64,000 nucleotides of DNA from an uncultured Clostridia bacterium (GCA_947630185.1 CANRGT010000009.1:4996-68995), one strand, 5' to 3'; shown: positions 4,167-58,000, counted from the first letter of the stretch. Translations and numbers: made by a program. Notes: generated by a model not told the origin, from the letters alone.

Positions 4167-4240
<74 letters not shown>

Positions 4241-12862: not shown

Positions 12863-14230
12863 CTATTTTGAATTTTTTCTTCTTTCATAAAAATAATTTT
12901 TTGAATTTTTGAATAATAATATTAATTTATTAGGTATTACGCTTTTAGATATTTGATTTATATTTATATCATTATTAGAATTTAGTTGCAATAATATTAT
13001 ATATATTACCACTAATGGCAAAAATCTATAAAAAATTTCTCCTTTTATTTCTATTATTATTGTAATTAAAAAGTTGATAGATAAAAAAGTTAATGCCTTA
13101 TTTTTTTGTTTGATTGATTGTGATATTAATTTAATAATTGGTATTATTATCGATAAATAGCCAATAATAGTAAATATTATTCCATAAAATAGCATCGGTC
13201 TCATAAATCCGACATCTGTTGACATATAATAATAATTTGAATAAGGAGCTGTATAATATCCATCTCCGAAAAAAAAAGTTCTAATATTAGGCATAAATAT
13301 CATTCTATCAAATACTATATCACTTGAACCAGTGTATAATTTTCCTGTTTTTATAAAATTTATAATTGGTGCAAATGCCCAATCCATCCAAATTTTCATT
13401 GTTCCATTACATATATATAATATTGTTAATATTGTAGCAATAACTATTATAAAAGAGCCTATATATAGTAAATTCTTCTTGTCCTTTTTTATGAAAATAA
13501 ATGCTAATATTATGGCAGATATTGCTGAAACAGTTGCTCCTATTCTTCCATATAAAGTTGAACCTACCAATAACATTATATAAGATATGTATAACATTAC
13601 ATTTTCTTTTTTTATTTTTAGGTTTTCCTCAATTATTAAAAATCCATTTATTATAACAGCAAATATAACTTTAAATGCAATTTGAAATCCTGAATAACCA
13701 TCTATACCATATCTTGTCATATAATTAGCATTTTCTAGTATTATATGATAACTTGGATCATATATTATTTTGTTCCATGCTTCTTTCAAACCTGGAAAAA
13801 TCACAAAGAATATTGTTGTTAATATATACATATTTGTAGCTATTATTACGTATTTCGAAAATAAATATATATTTGCCTCATCTTTGTGTTTTTTTTCAAA
13901 TAAAATTAAAAGGGCTAATAACTTTATTGTTGTCCTTGCTATACTTACTAAAACATCTAAATATGAAAAATCTAACGTTTTATATATAATTGGGACTAAA
14001 ATAGCTGCTATTACACATATCATAATTGCTATAACTGAATATTTTAAACATCCATTTTTTACTATCAAAATATATTTTATTAAATATTTTATATTTATTA
14101 ATATATATATAACGCATATTCCATAAATTATCAATGTTTGTACTGTACTTATTTTATTAAATGTAAAAGTAAATAGAATATAAAAAAATGCTAACAGTAA
14201 CATTGGCTTTATTTTACTAAAGTATTTCAT
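12863..14230 (-). CDS. polytopic membrane protein, O-antigen polymerase/ligase (Wzy)-like
   Basis: 455 aa with at least 10 TM segments, sitting inside the glycan gene cluster. Its start overlaps the upstream gene's stop by 4 nt. Function is inferred from context. Confidence 0.45.
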   Translation of the reverse strand: MKYFSKIKPMLLLAFFYILFTFTFNKISTVQTLIIYGICVIYILINIKYLIKYILIVKNGCLKYSVIAIMICVIAAILVPIIYKTLDFSYLDVLVSIARTTIKLLALLILFEKKHKDEANIYLFSKYVIIATNMYILTTIFFVIFPGLKEAWNKIIYDPSYHIILENANYMTRYGIDGYSGFQIAFKVIFAVIINGFLIIEENLKIKKENVMLYISYIMLLVGSTLYGRIGATVSAISAIILAFIFIKKDKKNLLYIGSFIIVIATILTILYICNGTMKIWMDWAFAPIINFIKTGKLYTGSSDIVFDRMIFMPNIRTFFFGDGYYTAPYSNYYYMSTDVGFMRPMLFYGIIFTIIGYLSIIIPIIKLISQSIKQKNKALTFLSINFLITIIIEIKGEIFYRFLPLVVIYIILLQLNSNNDININQISKSVIPNKLILLFKNSKNYFYERRKNSK

Positions 14231-27603: not shown

Positions 27604-27858
27604 TTTATCTGTTCCTTACGTAGCATATTTAGGTTTTCATAAGATTTTACCTATAAACTTTTTTCAGTTACATTTTATCATATTAACATATGTTTCTCAA
27701 TAACTAAATTTATTTTTTCTATGTATAAAAATTTTTATATTTAAAATTTTGCCTAACGATTTATTATTTCAATTTTATATTTATTTCTATTTTGTATATA
27801 TCTTTTTTAAAATAATTATGATATTATTTAGAAAATAAAATTTTAGGGGGACTTATTA

Positions 27859-29388
27859 ATGAAAATAAATTTAGAAGAAAAAAAAATACATAAAATTTTC
27901 TTTGTACTCATACTTCTTGTTGCTATTGCTGTTAGAATATATTCGTGGCCATATGGTATTTCTCAAGTAAATGTTGATGAAGCAATGACTGCTATTAATG
28001 CTAAAACTATGGCAGATAGTGGCATAGATATGTATGGTACAAGTTTTCCTGTTTACTTAGAAGCATGGGGATCTGCAGGTCAAAGTATAATGCTATTTTA
28101 TTTTATGGCATTTTTCTTTAAAATCTTTGGAGTTTCTATGTTTAGTGTAAGACTTCCAATGCTTATAGTCAGCATTCTTTCAATTATTGTATTTTATGAT
28201 TTGATTAAAAGAATATTTAATAACAAAAAACTTGCTCTTTTTGCAATGGCTTTTGTTAGTATATGTCCTTGGCATTTCTTACAGTCTATTTGGTCTATTG
28301 ATTGTAATATGTTTCCACATTTTATGCTATTTTCTGTATATTTCTTATACCGTGGAATATCTGATAAAAAATGGATGCTTTATCTTTCAATGGTCTTCTT
28401 TGCACTTACTATGTACACATATGGTGTTTCGGTTTATGTAGTTCCATTTTTCTTACTAATTTCTGCTATTTATTTATTAATAAAAAAACAAGTAAAAATA
28501 AAGGAAATCATTATTTGCATTATTATTTACCTTATAATTAGTAGTCCTATTCTTACTATGTATGTAATTAATGCTTTAAAAATTGATACTGATATTCATT
28601 TAGGGCCTATTACTATTCAATACTTTGAAAATTCTGTTAGAACCAACGATATGATTTTCTTTGCAGACAATATAGGTAAAACTTTAGTTGAAAATTTAAA
28701 AAGTATTGGTAGAGTATTTTTTTCACAACATGATGGTTTAGAGTGGAATGCTACAAAACCATTTGGCACTACTTACCATATATCTTTAGTTTTCTTCTTC
28801 GTTGGAATATTTTATCTTATAAAATACAAAGATAAAAGAAATCTAGGTACATTTTTTATGAGTATTTGGCTAATTTTAAGCTTTTTACTTGGACTTATTA
28901 TTAAAAACACTAATATAAATAGACTAAATGTTATTTGGTTCCCTACTTTGTTTTTTAGCTTTTACGGAATTTATGCACTTTGTTCTACTTTAAAAAGAGG
29001 AAAGATTCTTAAATATGCTGTTATTACTATTTATTCTATTTTATTTGTTGGTTTTACAATTTATCTTTATGGTTTTTATACTGAAAAAATTGATATGTCA
29101 GGATGTTTTGCAAGAAAAATTACAAATGCAATTCACTATGCAAATGTAACACTTGAAAAAAAGGCTGTATATTACAACCCTTCTTCTGATATATATATTA
29201 AATTTCAAGATATGCTAGATGACACAAACTCTGAACATGTCTCAGATAAGAATCTCTTTTTAACTAGGATTAAAAATAAGACTGAAGATGAAGCTTTTGT
29301 AATTTCAGAATCTGAACTTAATGACTTTTCTATTAACATTACTAATTACAATTATGAAAAATTTGGAAACAATTTTGTGATTTATTAA
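27859..29388 (+). CDS. GT-C fold membrane glycosyltransferase (PMT_2/ArnT-like), paralogue 3
   Basis: 509 aa, polytopic, with a first-loop VNVDEAMTA motif. Confidence 0.6.
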   Translation: MKINLEEKKIHKIFFVLILLVAIAVRIYSWPYGISQVNVDEAMTAINAKTMADSGIDMYGTSFPVYLEAWGSAGQSIMLFYFMAFFFKIFGVSMFSVRLPMLIVSILSIIVFYDLIKRIFNNKKLALFAMAFVSICPWHFLQSIWSIDCNMFPHFMLFSVYFLYRGISDKKWMLYLSMVFFALTMYTYGVSVYVVPFFLLISAIYLLIKKQVKIKEIIICIIIYLIISSPILTMYVINALKIDTDIHLGPITIQYFENSVRTNDMIFFADNIGKTLVENLKSIGRVFFSQHDGLEWNATKPFGTTYHISLVFFFVGIFYLIKYKDKRNLGTFFMSIWLILSFLLGLIIKNTNINRLNVIWFPTLFFSFYGIYALCSTLKRGKILKYAVITIYSILFVGFTIYLYGFYTEKIDMSGCFARKITNAIHYANVTLEKKAVYYNPSSDIYIKFQDMLDDTNSEHVSDKNLFLTRIKNKTEDEAFVISESELNDFSINITNYNYEKFGNNFVIY

Positions 29389-29402
29389 ATTATTAATAAA
29401 AT

Positions 29403-29557
29403 AAAAAGTAGTGACTTTAAAGCAGTACCGCGCAGCGTCCAAACGGAACGAAGTGAAGTGCGCTTGGAGCAACCAACATACTATGTAATAAATTGTATTT
29501 ATACAATTTATTACATAAGAGGTTGTGACAGCAAGGTACGCGTAAAGTCACTATTTT
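29403..29557 (+). repeat. GC-rich-core hairpin element, copy R3
   Basis: Outer stem TAGTGACTTTA/TAAAGTCACTA, inner stem GTACC/GGTAC. Core is GCGCAGCGTCCAAACGGAACGAAGTGAAGTGCGCTTGGAGCAACC. Apical hairpin is ATGTAATAAATTGTAT/ATACAATTTATTACAT. Confidence 0.75.
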
Positions 29558-36473: not shown

Positions 36474-36493
36474 TAAAAGCGTCATTGGAAATG

Positions 36494-36569
36494 GGCGCAT
36501 AGCTCAGCTGGGAGAGCATCTGCCTTACAAGCAGGAGGTCATAGGTTCGAGCCCTATTGCGCCCACCAT
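36494..36569 (+). tRNA. tRNA-Val (anticodon UAC), CCA encoded
   Basis: GGGCGCATAGCTCAGCTGGGAGAGCATCTGCCTTACAAGCAGGAGGTCATAGGTTCGAGCCCTATTGCGCCCACCA folds as a cloverleaf. Anticodon loop is CUUACAA. Confidence 0.95.
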
Positions 36570-36627
36570 TTTCAAAAATATTTAGATTTGCTAAATATTT
36601 TTTTATTTAAAAATAATTTTTATTTTT

Positions 36628-36704
36628 GGCCTGGTAGTTCAGTTGGTTAGAACGCTAGCCTGTCACGCTAGAGGTCGACGGTTCGAGCCCGTTCCAGGTC
36701 GCCA
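36628..36704 (+). tRNA. tRNA-Asp (anticodon GUC), CCA encoded
   Basis: GGCCTGGTAGTTCAGTTGGTTAGAACGCTAGCCTGTCACGCTAGAGGTCGACGGTTCGAGCCCGTTCCAGGTCGCCA. Anticodon loop is CUGUCAC. Confidence 0.95.
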
Positions 36705-36728
36705 TTTTTTTATTTACATATATAATAT

Positions 36729-36804
<76 letters not shown>

Positions 36805-42550: not shown

Positions 42551-42717
42551 GCTAAAAATATTATGTTTTGTAAGTACCGCGTAGCGTTCAAACGAAGCGT
42601 AAGCGAAGTGCGCTTGGAGCAACCAACATACAAGTAGTAATAAATTGTTAAGTATTAACAATTTATTACATAATATGGTTGCGACAACAAGGTACTAAAA
42701 AACATAATATTTTTAGC
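42551..42717 (+). repeat. GC-rich-core hairpin element, copy R4 (longest, archetype)
   Basis: Perfect 19-bp arms GCTAAAAATATTATGTTTT/AAAACATAATATTTTTAGC, stem GTACC/GGTAC. Core is GCGTAGCGTTCAAACGAAGCGTAAGCGAAGTGCGCTTGGAGCAACC. Apical hairpin is GTAATAAATTGTTAA/TTAACAATTTATTAC. Right side is GGTTGCGACAACAAG. Confidence 0.75.
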
Positions 42718-50049: not shown

Positions 50050-50083
50050 AGAATAGAGATTTATATTTCTCTATTCTTTTTTA
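50050..50083 (+). terminator. intrinsic terminator after the HD-domain gene
   Basis: AGAATAGAG-10 nt-CTCTATTCT followed by T5. Confidence 0.65.
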
Positions 50084-50109
50084 TTGTGAAACAACAAGGT
50101 TCTCTGGTA

Positions 50110-50140
50110 CCCACCCACAATCTTTGATTGTGATGGTGGG
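50110..50140 (+). promoter_or_regulatory. GC-rich hairpin in the dapB 5' region (candidate attenuator or regulatory structure)
   Basis: CCCACC-C-ACAATC tttg GATTGT-GAT-GGTGGG, a 13-bp interrupted stem. It lies 30 nt upstream of the dapB SD, and AGGTTCT occurs three times around it. Confidence 0.3.
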
Positions 50141-50170
50141 TGAGGTTCTTATATTTATTTGGGAGGTTCT

Positions 50171-51287: not shown

Positions 51288-51294
51288 ATTTTTT

Positions 51295-51326
51295 AAAAAT
51301 ATTCTCCTTTAAAAATATTCTCCTTT
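51295..51326. repeat. perfect tandem duplication, 2 x 16 bp (AAAAATATTCTCCTTT)
   Basis: Read directly. It lies between the divergent sRNA promoters. The minus strand reads AAAGGAGAATATTTTT twice. Confidence 0.9.
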
Positions 51327-51338
51327 AAAAAAAATTGT

Positions 51339-54747: not shown

Positions 54748-55977
54748 CTACATTTTATCATTATATAGTTTAACTGCTGTCTCAGGGCTGTCATTACCTT
54801 CTTTATTCTTTACTGGTGCAAATTCATCTTCCCTTTTTACTCTTAAAATAGTAATATCATCATATCTTTCAAACACATCAAATATGAAAGACTCATATTT
54901 ATATACATTTGGTTCTTCTACTTCTACAAATTCACCATTTTCTTTTAAGTATCCAGATTTTTTGAAAGCTGCATGATATGGAAGTTTAACATCTGCTAAA
55001 TTTTCAAATACGCTTCTATGGAACAAATAATTTGCAAGGTTTACTTCTCCAAATTGTAATTCTCCATTTTCATCTCTTTGCTCTGCCATTTCATCTGGCA
55101 AATCTATGTATTCTATGATTTTAGGTTTTCCATTCATTTTGCAAAATACACCAACTTTTTCTTTTGGATTAGTTTTTGCAACTGATTTTGCACCGATTTT
55201 TTGATTTTCTTCAATAGTAAGTGCTAATAATATAGGGTCAACAAAGTTTGATAATATATTATCAACATTGCTTACAAAAATCCAGTCTATTTGATTTTTC
55301 TTCATATCTTCTAGTATTCCAGATTTTGAAACTGCCTCATATATTCCACCATTTCCATCTGCCGCTTCTTTAATTTTTTTATCTTTATCTAATATTAGCT
55401 TCCCATTTGTATCAATAAGTGGCAATTCTCCTTGCATGAAGAATTTTACTTTTGTTTTGTCATAGCCAAAATATTCATGCTTTTCTAAAAATTCTACTGT
55501 ATCTTCATGGTTTTCTCTACTTGTCATTACATACCATGGAATTGTTATTTTGTACTTATCTTTTGCTCTTTTCAAGGTATCTACAATTATTTCAAAAATA
55601 TATTTTTTTCCATACTTAGTATTTAATTCATAAGTACCTTTTGGACCTTTATGCCCTAGTCTTGTGCCTTGACCACCTGCCATTGTTATAACTGCATAAT
55701 GTCCTTCTTCAATTATTTTGCCTCCTACTTCTTCTAGCTCTTTTATTCTATCTTCTGATAGTTTTTCTTTATTTGTATAGTTAATATGTTCTATTTTCTT
55801 TTCTTCAAATTCTACTTTTCTTTTTGTCATTTCATATAAGTTTTTTAGCTGATTAAAGTCTATTTTAGAAATTTGTTCTTCTAGATTCTCTTTTTCTTCT
55901 TCATTTAATAAGTTCATATAATTTAAAATGTGCTCTTGTCCGTATTCTTTTAAAATTTGTAATACTTCTGGTTTCAT
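54748..55977 (-). CDS. UDP-sugar / UDP-N-acetylhexosamine pyrophosphorylase (eukaryotic-type UDPGP/UAP family)
   Basis: 409 aa. Motifs: ITMAGGQGTRLGHKGPKGTY and ADGNGGIYEA. Confidence 0.8.
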   Translation of the reverse strand: MKPEVLQILKEYGQEHILNYMNLLNEEEKENLEEQISKIDFNQLKNLYEMTKRKVEFEEKKIEHINYTNKEKLSEDRIKELEEVGGKIIEEGHYAVITMAGGQGTRLGHKGPKGTYELNTKYGKKYIFEIIVDTLKRAKDKYKITIPWYVMTSRENHEDTVEFLEKHEYFGYDKTKVKFFMQGELPLIDTNGKLILDKDKKIKEAADGNGGIYEAVSKSGILEDMKKNQIDWIFVSNVDNILSNFVDPILLALTIEENQKIGAKSVAKTNPKEKVGVFCKMNGKPKIIEYIDLPDEMAEQRDENGELQFGEVNLANYLFHRSVFENLADVKLPYHAAFKKSGYLKENGEFVEVEEPNVYKYESFIFDVFERYDDITILRVKREDEFAPVKNKEGNDSPETAVKLYNDKM

Positions 55978-56166
55978 TAAAATACATTCCTTTCGGTTTA
56001 ATTTTTTATACTTTATAGTATTCTAATTAAATTTATTTTGTGTTTATGCTAGTCTTTTATTGCACTATTAATTTATATCACAAACTCTAAAAAAAAACAA
56101 GTAAGACAGTAATTCTTAAAGTTGTCTTAATTTTCTTGACAAACCCAAGACTTACTGTCATAATTC

Positions 56167-57585
56167 TTAATACATAATATACAAGACCATACGGAATCCG
56201 TTGGCAGAAATAATAAGCTTCTGTCGGTTCTGCACTTCTTATAACCATACCATGAGATCCCAAATCTCCAAAACAGCACCCACGAGTTGTAGCACCTTTT
56301 ATTGTTTCATTATCTTTTTCTATATTACCTGTTTCTGTCGTTACTTCCCACATATTTCCTGCCATATCATATATATTTTTTGCTTTGTTTCTCTCTGATA
56401 TTCCTGTTGCTAACTCATATACATCCTTTGTACCTATAAGTTCCCTTGCTTCAAAACTTACTCTTCCTTTTGAATAATTTTCTGTATTTATTTCCCATTT
56501 CCATGGTTCAAAAGTTACGCCATGTTTTGAATATAATCCATATACATTCTCTCCTGAGTCAGCATCTACATAGTTTCCCCATGAAGCGCTATCTTTTACA
56601 TCTATATTATTATTTTCAAACCAATGGCATATTGTATCCCATGCCTGAGAATCTATTAATCTACTTGTTACTGATGTACTTGATTCATACATCTTTTCTG
56701 ATAGTTTCTTTGCATTTTCTTGACTTATATAATTCCATGCTTGTCTCCCTTTTTTAGTTACTGGTAATTCTACATTTTCCGATTTATTTCTCTCTTTTTC
56801 ATTTGATTTATCTGTATAGTTAGTTTTTTCATTATAGTTTTTACTTTCTTCTACACCTGCCTCGTATCTTCCAACATAAAATCCCCCATATTCTTTTACA
56901 CTTGTTTGTCTTTCGTATAATTTTTCTGTATCTGACATATCTGTGCTTTCTTTGTATATGACATAATTTTTATCTTTCCATGTTTCTTTATCTTGTTCAT
57001 ATTTCAACTCTTCTCCATCTACTGGCACCCATACAAATTGGTTCCTTTCTTCTCTTGCAGTTGCTACATTTGTATTTGTTACAGGCTCAGTTCCTTCATA
57101 TATTACAAATCCTCCTGATACTGTGTTTTCTCCTGTTGCTCCTGAACCTACAAATCCTTTTGGTACTGGTACAGTTTTTCCATCTGCACTTGTTACTGCT
57201 GTTACTTTACTTATGCTCCATCCGTTATTTACTATATCTCCTATTGTGTCTTCTATATTTTGTATATCTTGCAAATCGCTTTTTACTGCCTCATTCGTTT
57301 TTTCTCCAGCTTCCTTTGCTAACTGTAATATTCCATTATCTCCAAACACAACCGTTATACTTACTGATGCCAAAATCAAAAGCACTACAATCGTTACTAC
57401 TAAGGCTATTAGTGTTATTCCTGAAATTGAACTTACACTTTTACCTTGTCTAACTTTTGCAGTGCATATAAATAATGGTCTATTTTTGCTATATAAACCT
57501 TCCCTTTCTTCTATTTTTACTAAATTACGGCTCTCTCTCTCTCTCTCTCTCTCTCTCTAGAGCCACAAGCGTTTTTACTTTTCAT
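56167..57585 (-). CDS. pilin-like N-terminal anchor plus FGE-sulfatase (SUMF1/EgtB/PvdO) domain surface protein. The 5' (AG)14 tract currently puts the ATG out of frame, and a zero-frame CGG lies near the 3' end.
   Basis: AGGAGG lies before ATG 57585. The body frame (56087..57556) contains SG-ITLIALVVTIVVLLILA...GDNGILQLAKEAG and NIYDMAGNMWEVTTE...TRGCCFGD. Skipping the C of CGG (56200) gives the canonical ...CQ-GFRMVLYIMY* ending at 56167. Confidence 0.65.
57531..57558 (-). repeat. (AG)14 dinucleotide microsatellite inside the coding region ((CT)14 on the + strand)
   Basis: Read directly. It starts 27 nt (9 codons) after the ATG and would encode (Arg-Glu)n. Confidence 0.98.
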
Positions 57586-57636
57586 ACGTTTTCCTCCTAT
57601 TTTTTGACTTTAGATATTAATATTTTGTATAAATAA

Positions 57637-57665
57637 TTTATAATATACTTTATTATTTTTGTCAA
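57637..57665 (-). promoter_or_regulatory. promoter of the pilin-like/FGE gene
   Basis: Minus strand TTGACA (57665-57660), 17-nt spacer, TATAAA (57642-57637). Confidence 0.55.
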
Positions 57666-57682
57666 TACTTTTAATTTTATAT

Positions 57683-57718
57683 AAAAAAGAAAACCCCAAA
57701 AAATTTTCTGGGGTTTTT
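57683..57718 (-). terminator. intrinsic terminator after the Cys-rich small protein gene
   Basis: Minus strand AAACCCCA-10 nt-UGGGGUUU followed by UCUUUUUU. Confidence 0.65.
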
Positions 57719-57733
57719 AATAATCTTATTTGG

Positions 57734-58000
57734 TTAGCAACATTTATTTTTATTGCATATCATTTCTACAACTCTTATAATAATTAATATAACAAGTATA
57801 ACTGCTAAAATAATAAATGCTGGTAATGCAGCTGTAATAACGGCAGCAACTGCTGCAATAGAACCTATAATTAAACCTAATGTTATTCCTAATAATACAG
57901 ATAATATAAAGATAACAATATCTATACAGCATCTGTTTTTTCTTTCAGGCTTACATCCATTGCTATATATAGTAATACAGTTTTTATCTCCTTCGCACAT
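57734..58000 (-). CDS. small Cys-rich membrane protein, function unknown
   Basis: 88 aa. The N-terminus MCEGDKNCITIYSNGCKPERKNRCC has 5 Cys, followed by two TM helices and a C-terminal CNKNKCC. Confidence 0.5.
   Translation of the reverse strand: MCEGDKNCITIYSNGCKPERKNRCCIDIVIFILSVLLGITLGLIIGSIAAVAAVITAALPAFIILAVILVILIIIRVVEMICNKNKCC

Follow-up and report, generated by a model that had tools for sequence, protein, structure and literature searches.

The locus described here raises the question of whether a long dinucleotide repeat, lying a few codons into a gene, acts to switch that gene on and off, and whether such a gene stands alone. It is found on the minus strand of a 64,000-nucleotide (nt) stretch of DNA from an uncultured Clostridia bacterium (GCA_947630185.1 CANRGT010000009.1:4996-68995), which is referred to throughout as the window, with positions counted from its first letter. 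The gene starts at an ATG at 57585 and carries the repeat, (AG)14, nine codons later. An original prediction, made from the sequence alone, held that the repeat is a slipped-strand phase-variation switch in a surface-protein gene and that the switch is at present OFF. Our analysis leads us to put the probability that the locus is a slipped-strand translational phase-variation (contingency) switch at about 0.7, a figure that applies to the cassette of promoter, start and repeat as a whole. The window locus is also one member of a multigene family, and not a lone gene, with the same cassette found at many loci in rabbit-gut Clostridia.

Anatomy and reading frames of the proposed switch region

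The minus strand of the window was read directly from 55800 to 57900 and translated in three frames. The features that make up the switch region are, from 5' to 3' and with n as the number of AG units:

57690-57717, minus strand: intrinsic terminator of an upstream gene of 88 amino acids (aa), a 12-bp stem and then a T-run
57637-57665, minus strand: sigma-70-type promoter by direct reading, TTGACA (57665-57660), 17-nt spacer, TATAAA (57642-57637)
57593-57598, minus strand: Shine-Dalgarno (SD) sequence AGGAGG by direct reading, 7 nt 5' of the ATG
57559-57585, minus strand: start codon ATG (57585-57583) and pre-repeat codons, MKSKNACGS, near-identical across all cassettes
57531-57558, minus strand: (AG)14 tract, the proposed hypermutable element; Tandem Repeats Finder (TRF) gives period 2, 14.0 copies, 100% match
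57520-57527, minus strand: stops of the two OFF frames right after the tract, TAA 57527-57525 (n mod 3 = 0) and TAG 57522-57520 (n mod 3 = 2, the present state), from reading and translation

The upstream terminator sets the switch gene apart as its own transcription unit. The promoter is omitted by an automatic promoter scan because that scan demands T as the final base of the -10 hexamer. The (AG)14 tract is not a chance feature. It is the only dinucleotide run of more than five units in the 64 kb of the window (27% G+C), the next longest being three (AT)5 runs, and by our own arithmetic its chance expectation from base frequencies is about 1e-13. As a perfect simple-sequence tract inside a 5' coding region, and one of sufficient length for instability, it has the form expected of a contingency locus mediated by a simple sequence repeat (SSR).

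With 14 units the ATG frame reads RERERERER-AVI after the pre-repeat codons and then stops at the TAG just listed. The body of the gene is in the +2 frame relative to the ATG, and this frame is closed directly 5' of the tract by a TAG (57559-57557) that arises from CTCT+AG, the final pre-repeat bases plus the start of the tract. The first in-frame start available to the body is GTG 57385, in the middle of the transmembrane helix, and it is there that the public gene call (P0001) begins. The third frame ends at the TAA after the tract. Only n mod 3 = 1, as with 13 or 16 units, gives the ON state, so that the window, at n=14, is OFF, and it is the unit number that toggles the frame between full-length product and early termination, as in a contingency locus. 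Direct reading and TRF place the promoter, SD, ATG, MKSKNACGS and (AG)14 where the original prediction had them. Three-frame translation upholds its claims that the gene is OFF, that the body frame offers no usable alternative start, and that ATG and body would come into one frame at 13 or 16 units; alleles with n=13 elsewhere in the family show the predicted fusion.

The upstream 88-aa gene (57734-58000, minus strand) has its own strong terminator, and its product is rich in cysteine, contains a single long hydrophobic segment and ends in ...CNKNKCC.

A cassette shared by a family of genes

An exact scan with the 21-mer AACGCTTGTGGCTCTAGAGAG, which spans the start of the tract, covered 185,579 species at one genome each. 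It gave 16 sites on 14 contigs, all in a single metagenome-assembled genome (MAG) from rabbit gut, GCA_947629045.1 (uncultured Clostridia bacterium Lapin-027 bin83), and the same MAG holds two further copies with one-base variants in the flank. Additional copies were taken from ENA assemblies of the same rabbit-gut project; loci are denoted here by L and proteins by P. Altogether this cassette of promoter, start and repeat, with 3 to 14 units, is present at 20 or more related loci, at least 17 of them in one MAG. Contig ends hold 10 of the 17 cassettes counted in the Lapin MAG, in keeping with the effect of a dispersed repeat on assembly.

Every copy consists of GGAGG or a near match, ATG AAA (AGT/AAC/ACT) AAA AAC GCT TGT GGC TCT and (AG)n. 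The GGAGG is at the same, ideal spacing in all cassettes except L007, which has AGAGG, and a promoter is present in every copy with enough upstream sequence, TTGACA-17-TATAAA also preceding the cassette in L001, L021, L023, L024 and L025. In the body-type copies long enough to be read, the tract is followed by the conserved CCGTAATTTAG, then by a leader and by G-ITLIALVV, the start of the membrane helix. Little or no variation is seen in the flanks AACGCTTGTGGCTCT and CCGTAATTTA, in contrast to n, and all AG/CT runs of at least five units in the window and in about 120 kb of L001-L016 are inside cassettes. The tract lengths of body-type cassettes, read from DNA in metagenome contigs and hence indicative rather than exact, are:

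n=9: 1 locus
n=11: 11 loci
n=12: 3 loci
n=13: 1 locus
n=14: 3 loci, including the window

Values inferred from protein sequence are 13 (P0006), 3 (P0016) and 7-8 (P0124). The n=13 alleles, P0006 and P0041/L006, are ON and read MK(T/S)KNACGS-(RE)4-SRNL...EEREGLYSKNRPLFICT...G-ITLIALVV, P0006 beginning MKTKNACGS(RE)4SRNLGK.... Two orthologous loci, L021 and L023, are 99.7% identical over 311 nt of flank and 96% identical in the gene, and have n=11 and n=14, respectively. Within the family, then, tract length is polymorphic between conserved flanks and ON alleles are among the lengths found. The comparison of strains and metagenomes proposed with the original prediction has turned up the same cassette in paralogues, with invariant flanks, variable n and ON-length alleles. 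Its central claim, that of a slipped-strand switch, gains comparative support from the variable n, the ON fusions, the orthologues at 11 and 14 units and the OFF copies with intact bodies described below.

The cassettes fall into two types by their 5' untranslated region (5'UTR), which is either short, about 40-60 nt (window, L021, L024b, L012), or long, about 165-215 nt. The long type holds a conserved inverted repeat, ACATGAGTG...CACTCAT (L023 2549-2763, L001 380-575, L025 80-280). The orthologues L021 (312-352) and L023 carry different 5'UTR types, which suggests that cassettes have been exchanged between loci. No second copy of the family or of the cassette was found in the window, and its flanks show no synteny with the family loci except for small intergenic repeats, and no positional orthologue was found; nor was a second allele of the window's own locus found among the loci compared. 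The cassette 21-mer had 0 matches in JGI metagenome contigs and in IMG/VR viral contigs; these collections added no alleles, and nothing points to an origin in phage. The leader by itself had no match in a protein search, and when it was extended by the N-terminus all the proteins found were of less than about 300 aa, P0124 and P0127 being added to the family in this way.

Five cassettes of the Lapin MAG have (AG)n followed by ACTGTCCGTTGAATAGAAAAAATAATAAATCAAAATATATAATAAAAATTAAAACTCATAG... in place of the usual leader. This junction always reaches a contig end, is without an open frame and resembles a diverged CCGTAATTTAG; the class could be a decayed one or could have a different downstream partner. 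Its members are:

L002 7537-7568, minus strand: n=6
L007 1315-1354: n=9
L009 217-285: n=4
L015 4003-4034: n=6
L016 1-61, minus strand: n=8

The encoded protein

The body that would be joined to the start in the ON phase has the following parts, the last three of which concern a second break in the frame:

57419-57532, minus strand: 38-codon charged leader in the body frame, SRNLVKIEEREGLYSKNRPLFICTAKVRQGKSVSSISG, disordered in the structural model
57344-57418, minus strand: prepilin-like hydrophobic N-terminal helix, G and then ITLIALVVTIVVLLILASVSITVV, near-identical among paralogues
56210-57343, minus strand: ectodomain predicted from an AlphaFold (AF2) model and family Pfam matches, with a long helix, a beta-rich domain and an FGE-sulfatase/C-type-lectin-like domain
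56206-56209, minus strand: non-repeat frameshift site, probably a 1-nt insertion in TATTATTTCTGCC, recognised from the conserved tail lying in another frame
56167-56208, minus strand: native C-terminal tail SANGFRMVLYIMY and TAA stop by translation, in the ATG frame and out of frame with the body
56087-56205, minus strand: non-native 40-codon extension in the present body frame by translation, with its stop (56089-56087) adjoining a T9 run

The AF2 model, built on the family alignment, has a mean predicted local distance difference test (pLDDT) score of 84. It shows the disordered leader, a hydrophobic helix at residues 41-63 running into a long helix at 68-101, then the beta-rich and FGE-like domains. 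Searched alone, the window protein gives just a spurious match to DUF7502 in Pfam at E<=1 and no match in NCBIfam; it has thousands of homologues. Across the family, PF03781 (FGE-sulfatase/SUMF1-like) is matched by 35 of the 46 aligned members (best E 7e-10) and PF07963 N_methyl, the prepilin methylation motif, by 13 of the 46 (best E 2e-4), and the family profile matches human SUMF2 (1y4j) at E=3e-4. The best fold match in the PDB, a weak one (E=0.019), is to a C-type-lectin-fold variable protein of a diversity-generating retroelement (DGR), and weak viral fold matches from Foldseek are to tail-fibre and SUMF-like proteins. Some small relatives carry the NCBI names FimT/FimU. In the prepilin signature the window protein has I at +1 and A at +5 after the G, instead of F/M and E. 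The N-terminal 45 residues after G-ITLIALVV are almost identical across paralogues, and the variable columns of the membrane helix, at 5/3/19 by codon position, point to coding constraint. A lectin-like surface protein anchored by its N-terminus would be a reasonable description of the product, and the predicted membrane helix and FGE/C-type-lectin-like ectodomain lend support to the surface location claimed at the outset.

The C-terminal end is of interest in two respects. The segment directly before the conserved GFRxVLY strand is hypervariable between paralogues, and the strand itself, encoded in the window by SANGFRMVLYIMY, has F, R, V, L and Y columns that are nearly invariant in the family. 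In the window this strand is cut off by the second frame break, at about 56209-56206 and some 13 codons before the native end, which the original prediction had missed. Either this break is a genuine lesion or it was introduced in assembly. If the window gene were switched ON, it would yield an aberrant C-terminus without the last conserved strand.

A DGR target gene was also considered for the window and rejected. A blastn search of 56150-56420 against the 64-kb window for a template repeat of the variable 3' end matched only the region itself, and the neighbouring genes in the window are housekeeping genes, with no reverse transcriptase seen among them.

Alternative explanations

It might be supposed that the ATG and (AG)n make up a short upstream open reading frame (ORF) or 5' leader, with the real start downstream at the ATG of the MQSIRK... 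segment, and that the tract tunes expression by coupling or attenuation, or does nothing. Most paralogues do have a longer leader whose internal ATG (MQSIRKNNS...), the start chosen by gene callers, opens a typical short basic leader; in addition the leader is without codon-position bias, most loci are in the n mod 3 = 2 phase, and an SSR-containing leader peptide has a precedent in Streptococcus gallolyticus pil1, where GCAGA repeats are reported to act through ribosome-dependent disruption of a transcription terminator (PMC3894217). We nevertheless consider an upstream ORF very unlikely. The internal start of the long-leader copies (...AATATACTAAAAATG) has no SD, and no internal start codon (ATG, GTG or TTG) precedes the membrane helix in the window gene, L016, L017, L024a/L025 or L024b. 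Three such copies are OFF with the body intact, namely L016 (n=12), L024b (n=9) and L017 (n=11); L016 and L024b have ORFs of 471-513 codons while OFF, and L017 (P0026) is called only from a GTG in the transmembrane helix, as a protein of 413 aa. Wherever enough sequence is available, the body frame stays open throughout the leader, and the short form of the leader, which is that of the window and has no MQSIRK... ATG, equals the long form less 23 codons, an in-frame deletion. P0127 has a degenerate remnant in place of the long tract and reads through in frame from the same ATG, MKSKNACGSLERRNLGK..., and so demonstrates that the upstream ATG is a real start. Between tract and body no Rfam family was matched, no terminator-like site of the kind used in leader/terminator attenuation was found at 57400-57585, and the minimum free energy of the RNA fold (z = -0.85) indicates no stable structure; an RNA attenuator or riboswitch was rejected on these three grounds. 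Inspection also led us to reject programmed ribosomal frameshifting out of the n mod 3 = 2 phase, GCC GTA ATT TAG being without a slippery heptamer, and with a genome this rich in AT the codon AGA would probably not be rare.

That the unit count is an artefact of assembly or sequencing, with a true tract that is in frame and (RE)n as a low-complexity coding repeat, seems to us scarcely credible. A cassette common to many paralogues does break assemblies, counts from de Bruijn contigs are not fully trustworthy, and the window comes from a single contig (P0001 has one member, on one contig). However, about 18 of the 20 independent loci or contigs are out of frame, most of them at n=11, which random miscounting around an in-frame length would not give, and conserved stops follow the tract directly in both OFF frames, a design feature of such switches. 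A different suggestion is that the window copy is a decaying pseudogene, non-functional at any n, and this would be compatible with a working switch elsewhere in the family. It is prompted by the second frame break, which removes the near-invariant strand and adds 40 non-native residues, and by the condition of some other members: at L024a/L025 a mid-gene frameshift (P0125 + P0027) is fixed in two samples, both with n=11, and L018/L019 is a 5'-truncated copy. The split member (L024 1-1436 / L025 283-1001) is the one nearest to the window gene at the 5' end, with 99% identity over the first 80 residues or so, and in L024 the next gene in tandem is another family member, intact and with a cassette of its own (n=9). 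We judge the pseudogene explanation rather improbable all the same. The other 441 codons of the window gene are open, with 54-67% identity to the closest paralogues and 36-44% to distant members; all 39 invariant family residues are present; nothing is damaged in the promoter, SD, ATG or perfect 14-unit tract; no more than the final 13 residues are affected; and a single-base insertion or deletion in one MAG contig could have arisen in assembly. We would give about even odds that the window copy is still functional.

Returning to the phase-variation switch, a number of observations weigh against it. The window copy may be a decaying member, and decay does occur in the family, as the second frameshift here and that of L024a/L025 make clear. 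Leader codons 1-42 show no third-position excess of variable columns (11/9/7), a test of little power given that the undisputed MQSIRK segment is equally flat (3/7/7); it is possible that the leader, whether cytoplasmic or cleaved, is weakly constrained. ON alleles are rare, at 2 of about 20 tract-bearing loci, and the three units by which L021 and L023 differ leave both in the same OFF phase. The 11 loci with n=11 are an over-representation, as a freely drifting tract should spread more. This excess could stem from recent gene conversion between cassettes, from the collapsing of bubbles in de Bruijn assembly where more than 16 loci share k-mers, or from selection for that state, against expression in the gut.

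Comparison with known systems

SSR contingency loci are textbook in Neisseria, Haemophilus, Helicobacter, Campylobacter and mycoplasmas. To our knowledge, the phase variation described so far in Gram-positive gut commensals is mostly invertase-based. No SSR-gated surface-protein family in Clostridia was found in the open-access subset of the literature, where absence is weak evidence, and a recent review of phase variation has only invertase switches (invertible promoters) for Clostridioides difficile and does not mention dinucleotide repeats (PMC11868660). Here a well-known mechanism most likely operates in a lineage and a protein family that are both new for it, by means of a cassette that is unusually uniform across many loci.

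The nearest parallels are ones of function and not of homology. The Hop genes sabB, hopZ and babB of Helicobacter pylori carry (CT)n in the region coding for the signal peptide. CT repeats are likewise present in the signal-peptide region of oipA (hopH), and also in babA and sabA (PMC10564699). The Clostridia genes resemble these in having a CT/AG dinucleotide tract located a few codons into a gene for a surface protein, a frame-dependent ON/OFF state set by slipped-strand mispairing, as proposed here, and paralogues each with their own tract. The Hop products are Gram-negative beta-barrel outer membrane proteins, whereas the Clostridia family has a prepilin-like helix and an FGE/C-type-lectin-like domain. 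A further difference from the Hop genes is that the whole cassette of promoter, SD, ATG, tract and leader is near-identical at 17 or more loci and apparently exchanged, and that switching is here proposed from sequence comparison.

The opa genes of Neisseria number about 11, each with (CTCTT)n in the region coding for the leader peptide and each switched independently, most of them being OFF at a given time; the paralogues have a conserved 5' end and variable regions, and their switching has been measured experimentally. The likeness lies in a multigene family with a coding repeat in the leader of each copy and mostly OFF states. The repeat of opa is a pentanucleotide rather than a dinucleotide, fold and envelope are different, and the switching measured in opa is inferred here. 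A looser parallel is provided by the vlp, vsa and vlhA families of Mycoplasma, small AT-rich genomes with many variable surface-protein loci switched by SSRs or by recombination. These use promoter poly-A, upstream GAA repeats or site-specific inversion and their products are lipoproteins, in contrast to a tract in coding sequence and a prepilin-like helix as the anchor.

The pil1 locus is closer in being Gram-positive and in having an SSR in a short leading ORF upstream of a gene for a surface structure. It differs in that in the Clostridia genes there is no terminator or stable structure and the ON phase fuses directly to the body. DGR variable proteins (TaqVP, PDB 5vf4) give the best, though weak, structural match and share the FGE-like C-terminal domain; in the present family it is the last 40 or so residues before GFRxV that vary most between paralogues. 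Diversity would here come from paralogues and the proposed ON/OFF switching, unlike the mutagenic retrohoming of DGRs.

Other repeats and features in the window

A relatively G+C-rich intergenic repeat, GTACCGCG(C/T)AGCG...AAACG..., occurs at 29367-29537 and 42554-42714, and a Lapin MAG site (L001 6625-6793) matches it at 82-83% identity; the repeat looks like a REP-like (repetitive extragenic palindromic) or small mobile element. A conserved 76-nt element with the hairpin CCCACCCACAATC...GATTGTGATGGTGGGTG is found at 50078-50153 of the window, L001 2122-2197 and L006 1608-1678. It lies just 3' of family genes in the Lapin loci and just 5' of an ORF starting near 50144 in the window. An A9 homopolymer at 27878-27886, about 10 codons into a 513-codon open frame (27847-29388, plus strand), could be another slippage-prone site, and other A9 runs are at 2241-2249, 13269-13277 and 56089-56097. 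A perfect 16-nt tandem repeat of 2.5 copies (TTTAAAAATATTCTCC) is intergenic at 51292-51331. The only Rfam matches in the window are tRNA genes, a cluster of three at 36493-36801 and one at 4170-4240.

A model of the proposed switch and its implications

Taken as a phase-variation switch, the locus could work as follows. A constitutive-looking promoter and strong SD would drive initiation at ATG 57585, and the (AG)n tract nine codons on would gain or lose units by slipped-strand mispairing during replication, a process that is presumably reversible. Only n mod 3 = 1 would join the start to the body of about 450 codons, translation in the other two phases halting at TAA or TAG within 12 nt of the end of the tract. 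The predicted product would be a prepilin-like protein, anchored by its N-terminus and probably exposed at the surface, with an FGE-sulfatase/C-type-lectin-like domain and a C-terminal segment highly variable among paralogues. With a cassette of its own for each family member, a cell might express changing subsets of the family, subpopulations would display different ones, and such variation may be of benefit to the organism.

The chances seem to us evenly balanced that this extends to a genome-wide 'phasome' in uncultured AT-rich rabbit-gut Clostridia, in which at least 17 loci for prepilin-like proteins of C-type-lectin fold would be gated by (AG)n, with the cassette moving between loci and combinatorial variation similar to that of Opa, Hop and Vlp. 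If the proposed switch is real, then uncultured gut Clostridia use the classic slipped-strand design at large scale for a lectin-like surface-protein family, and this would point to strong and fluctuating selection at the surface, for example by phage, host IgA or partner cells. It would also explain the fragmentation of MAGs at cassette loci, and tract length per read in existing rabbit-gut metagenomes would be a simple and testable marker.

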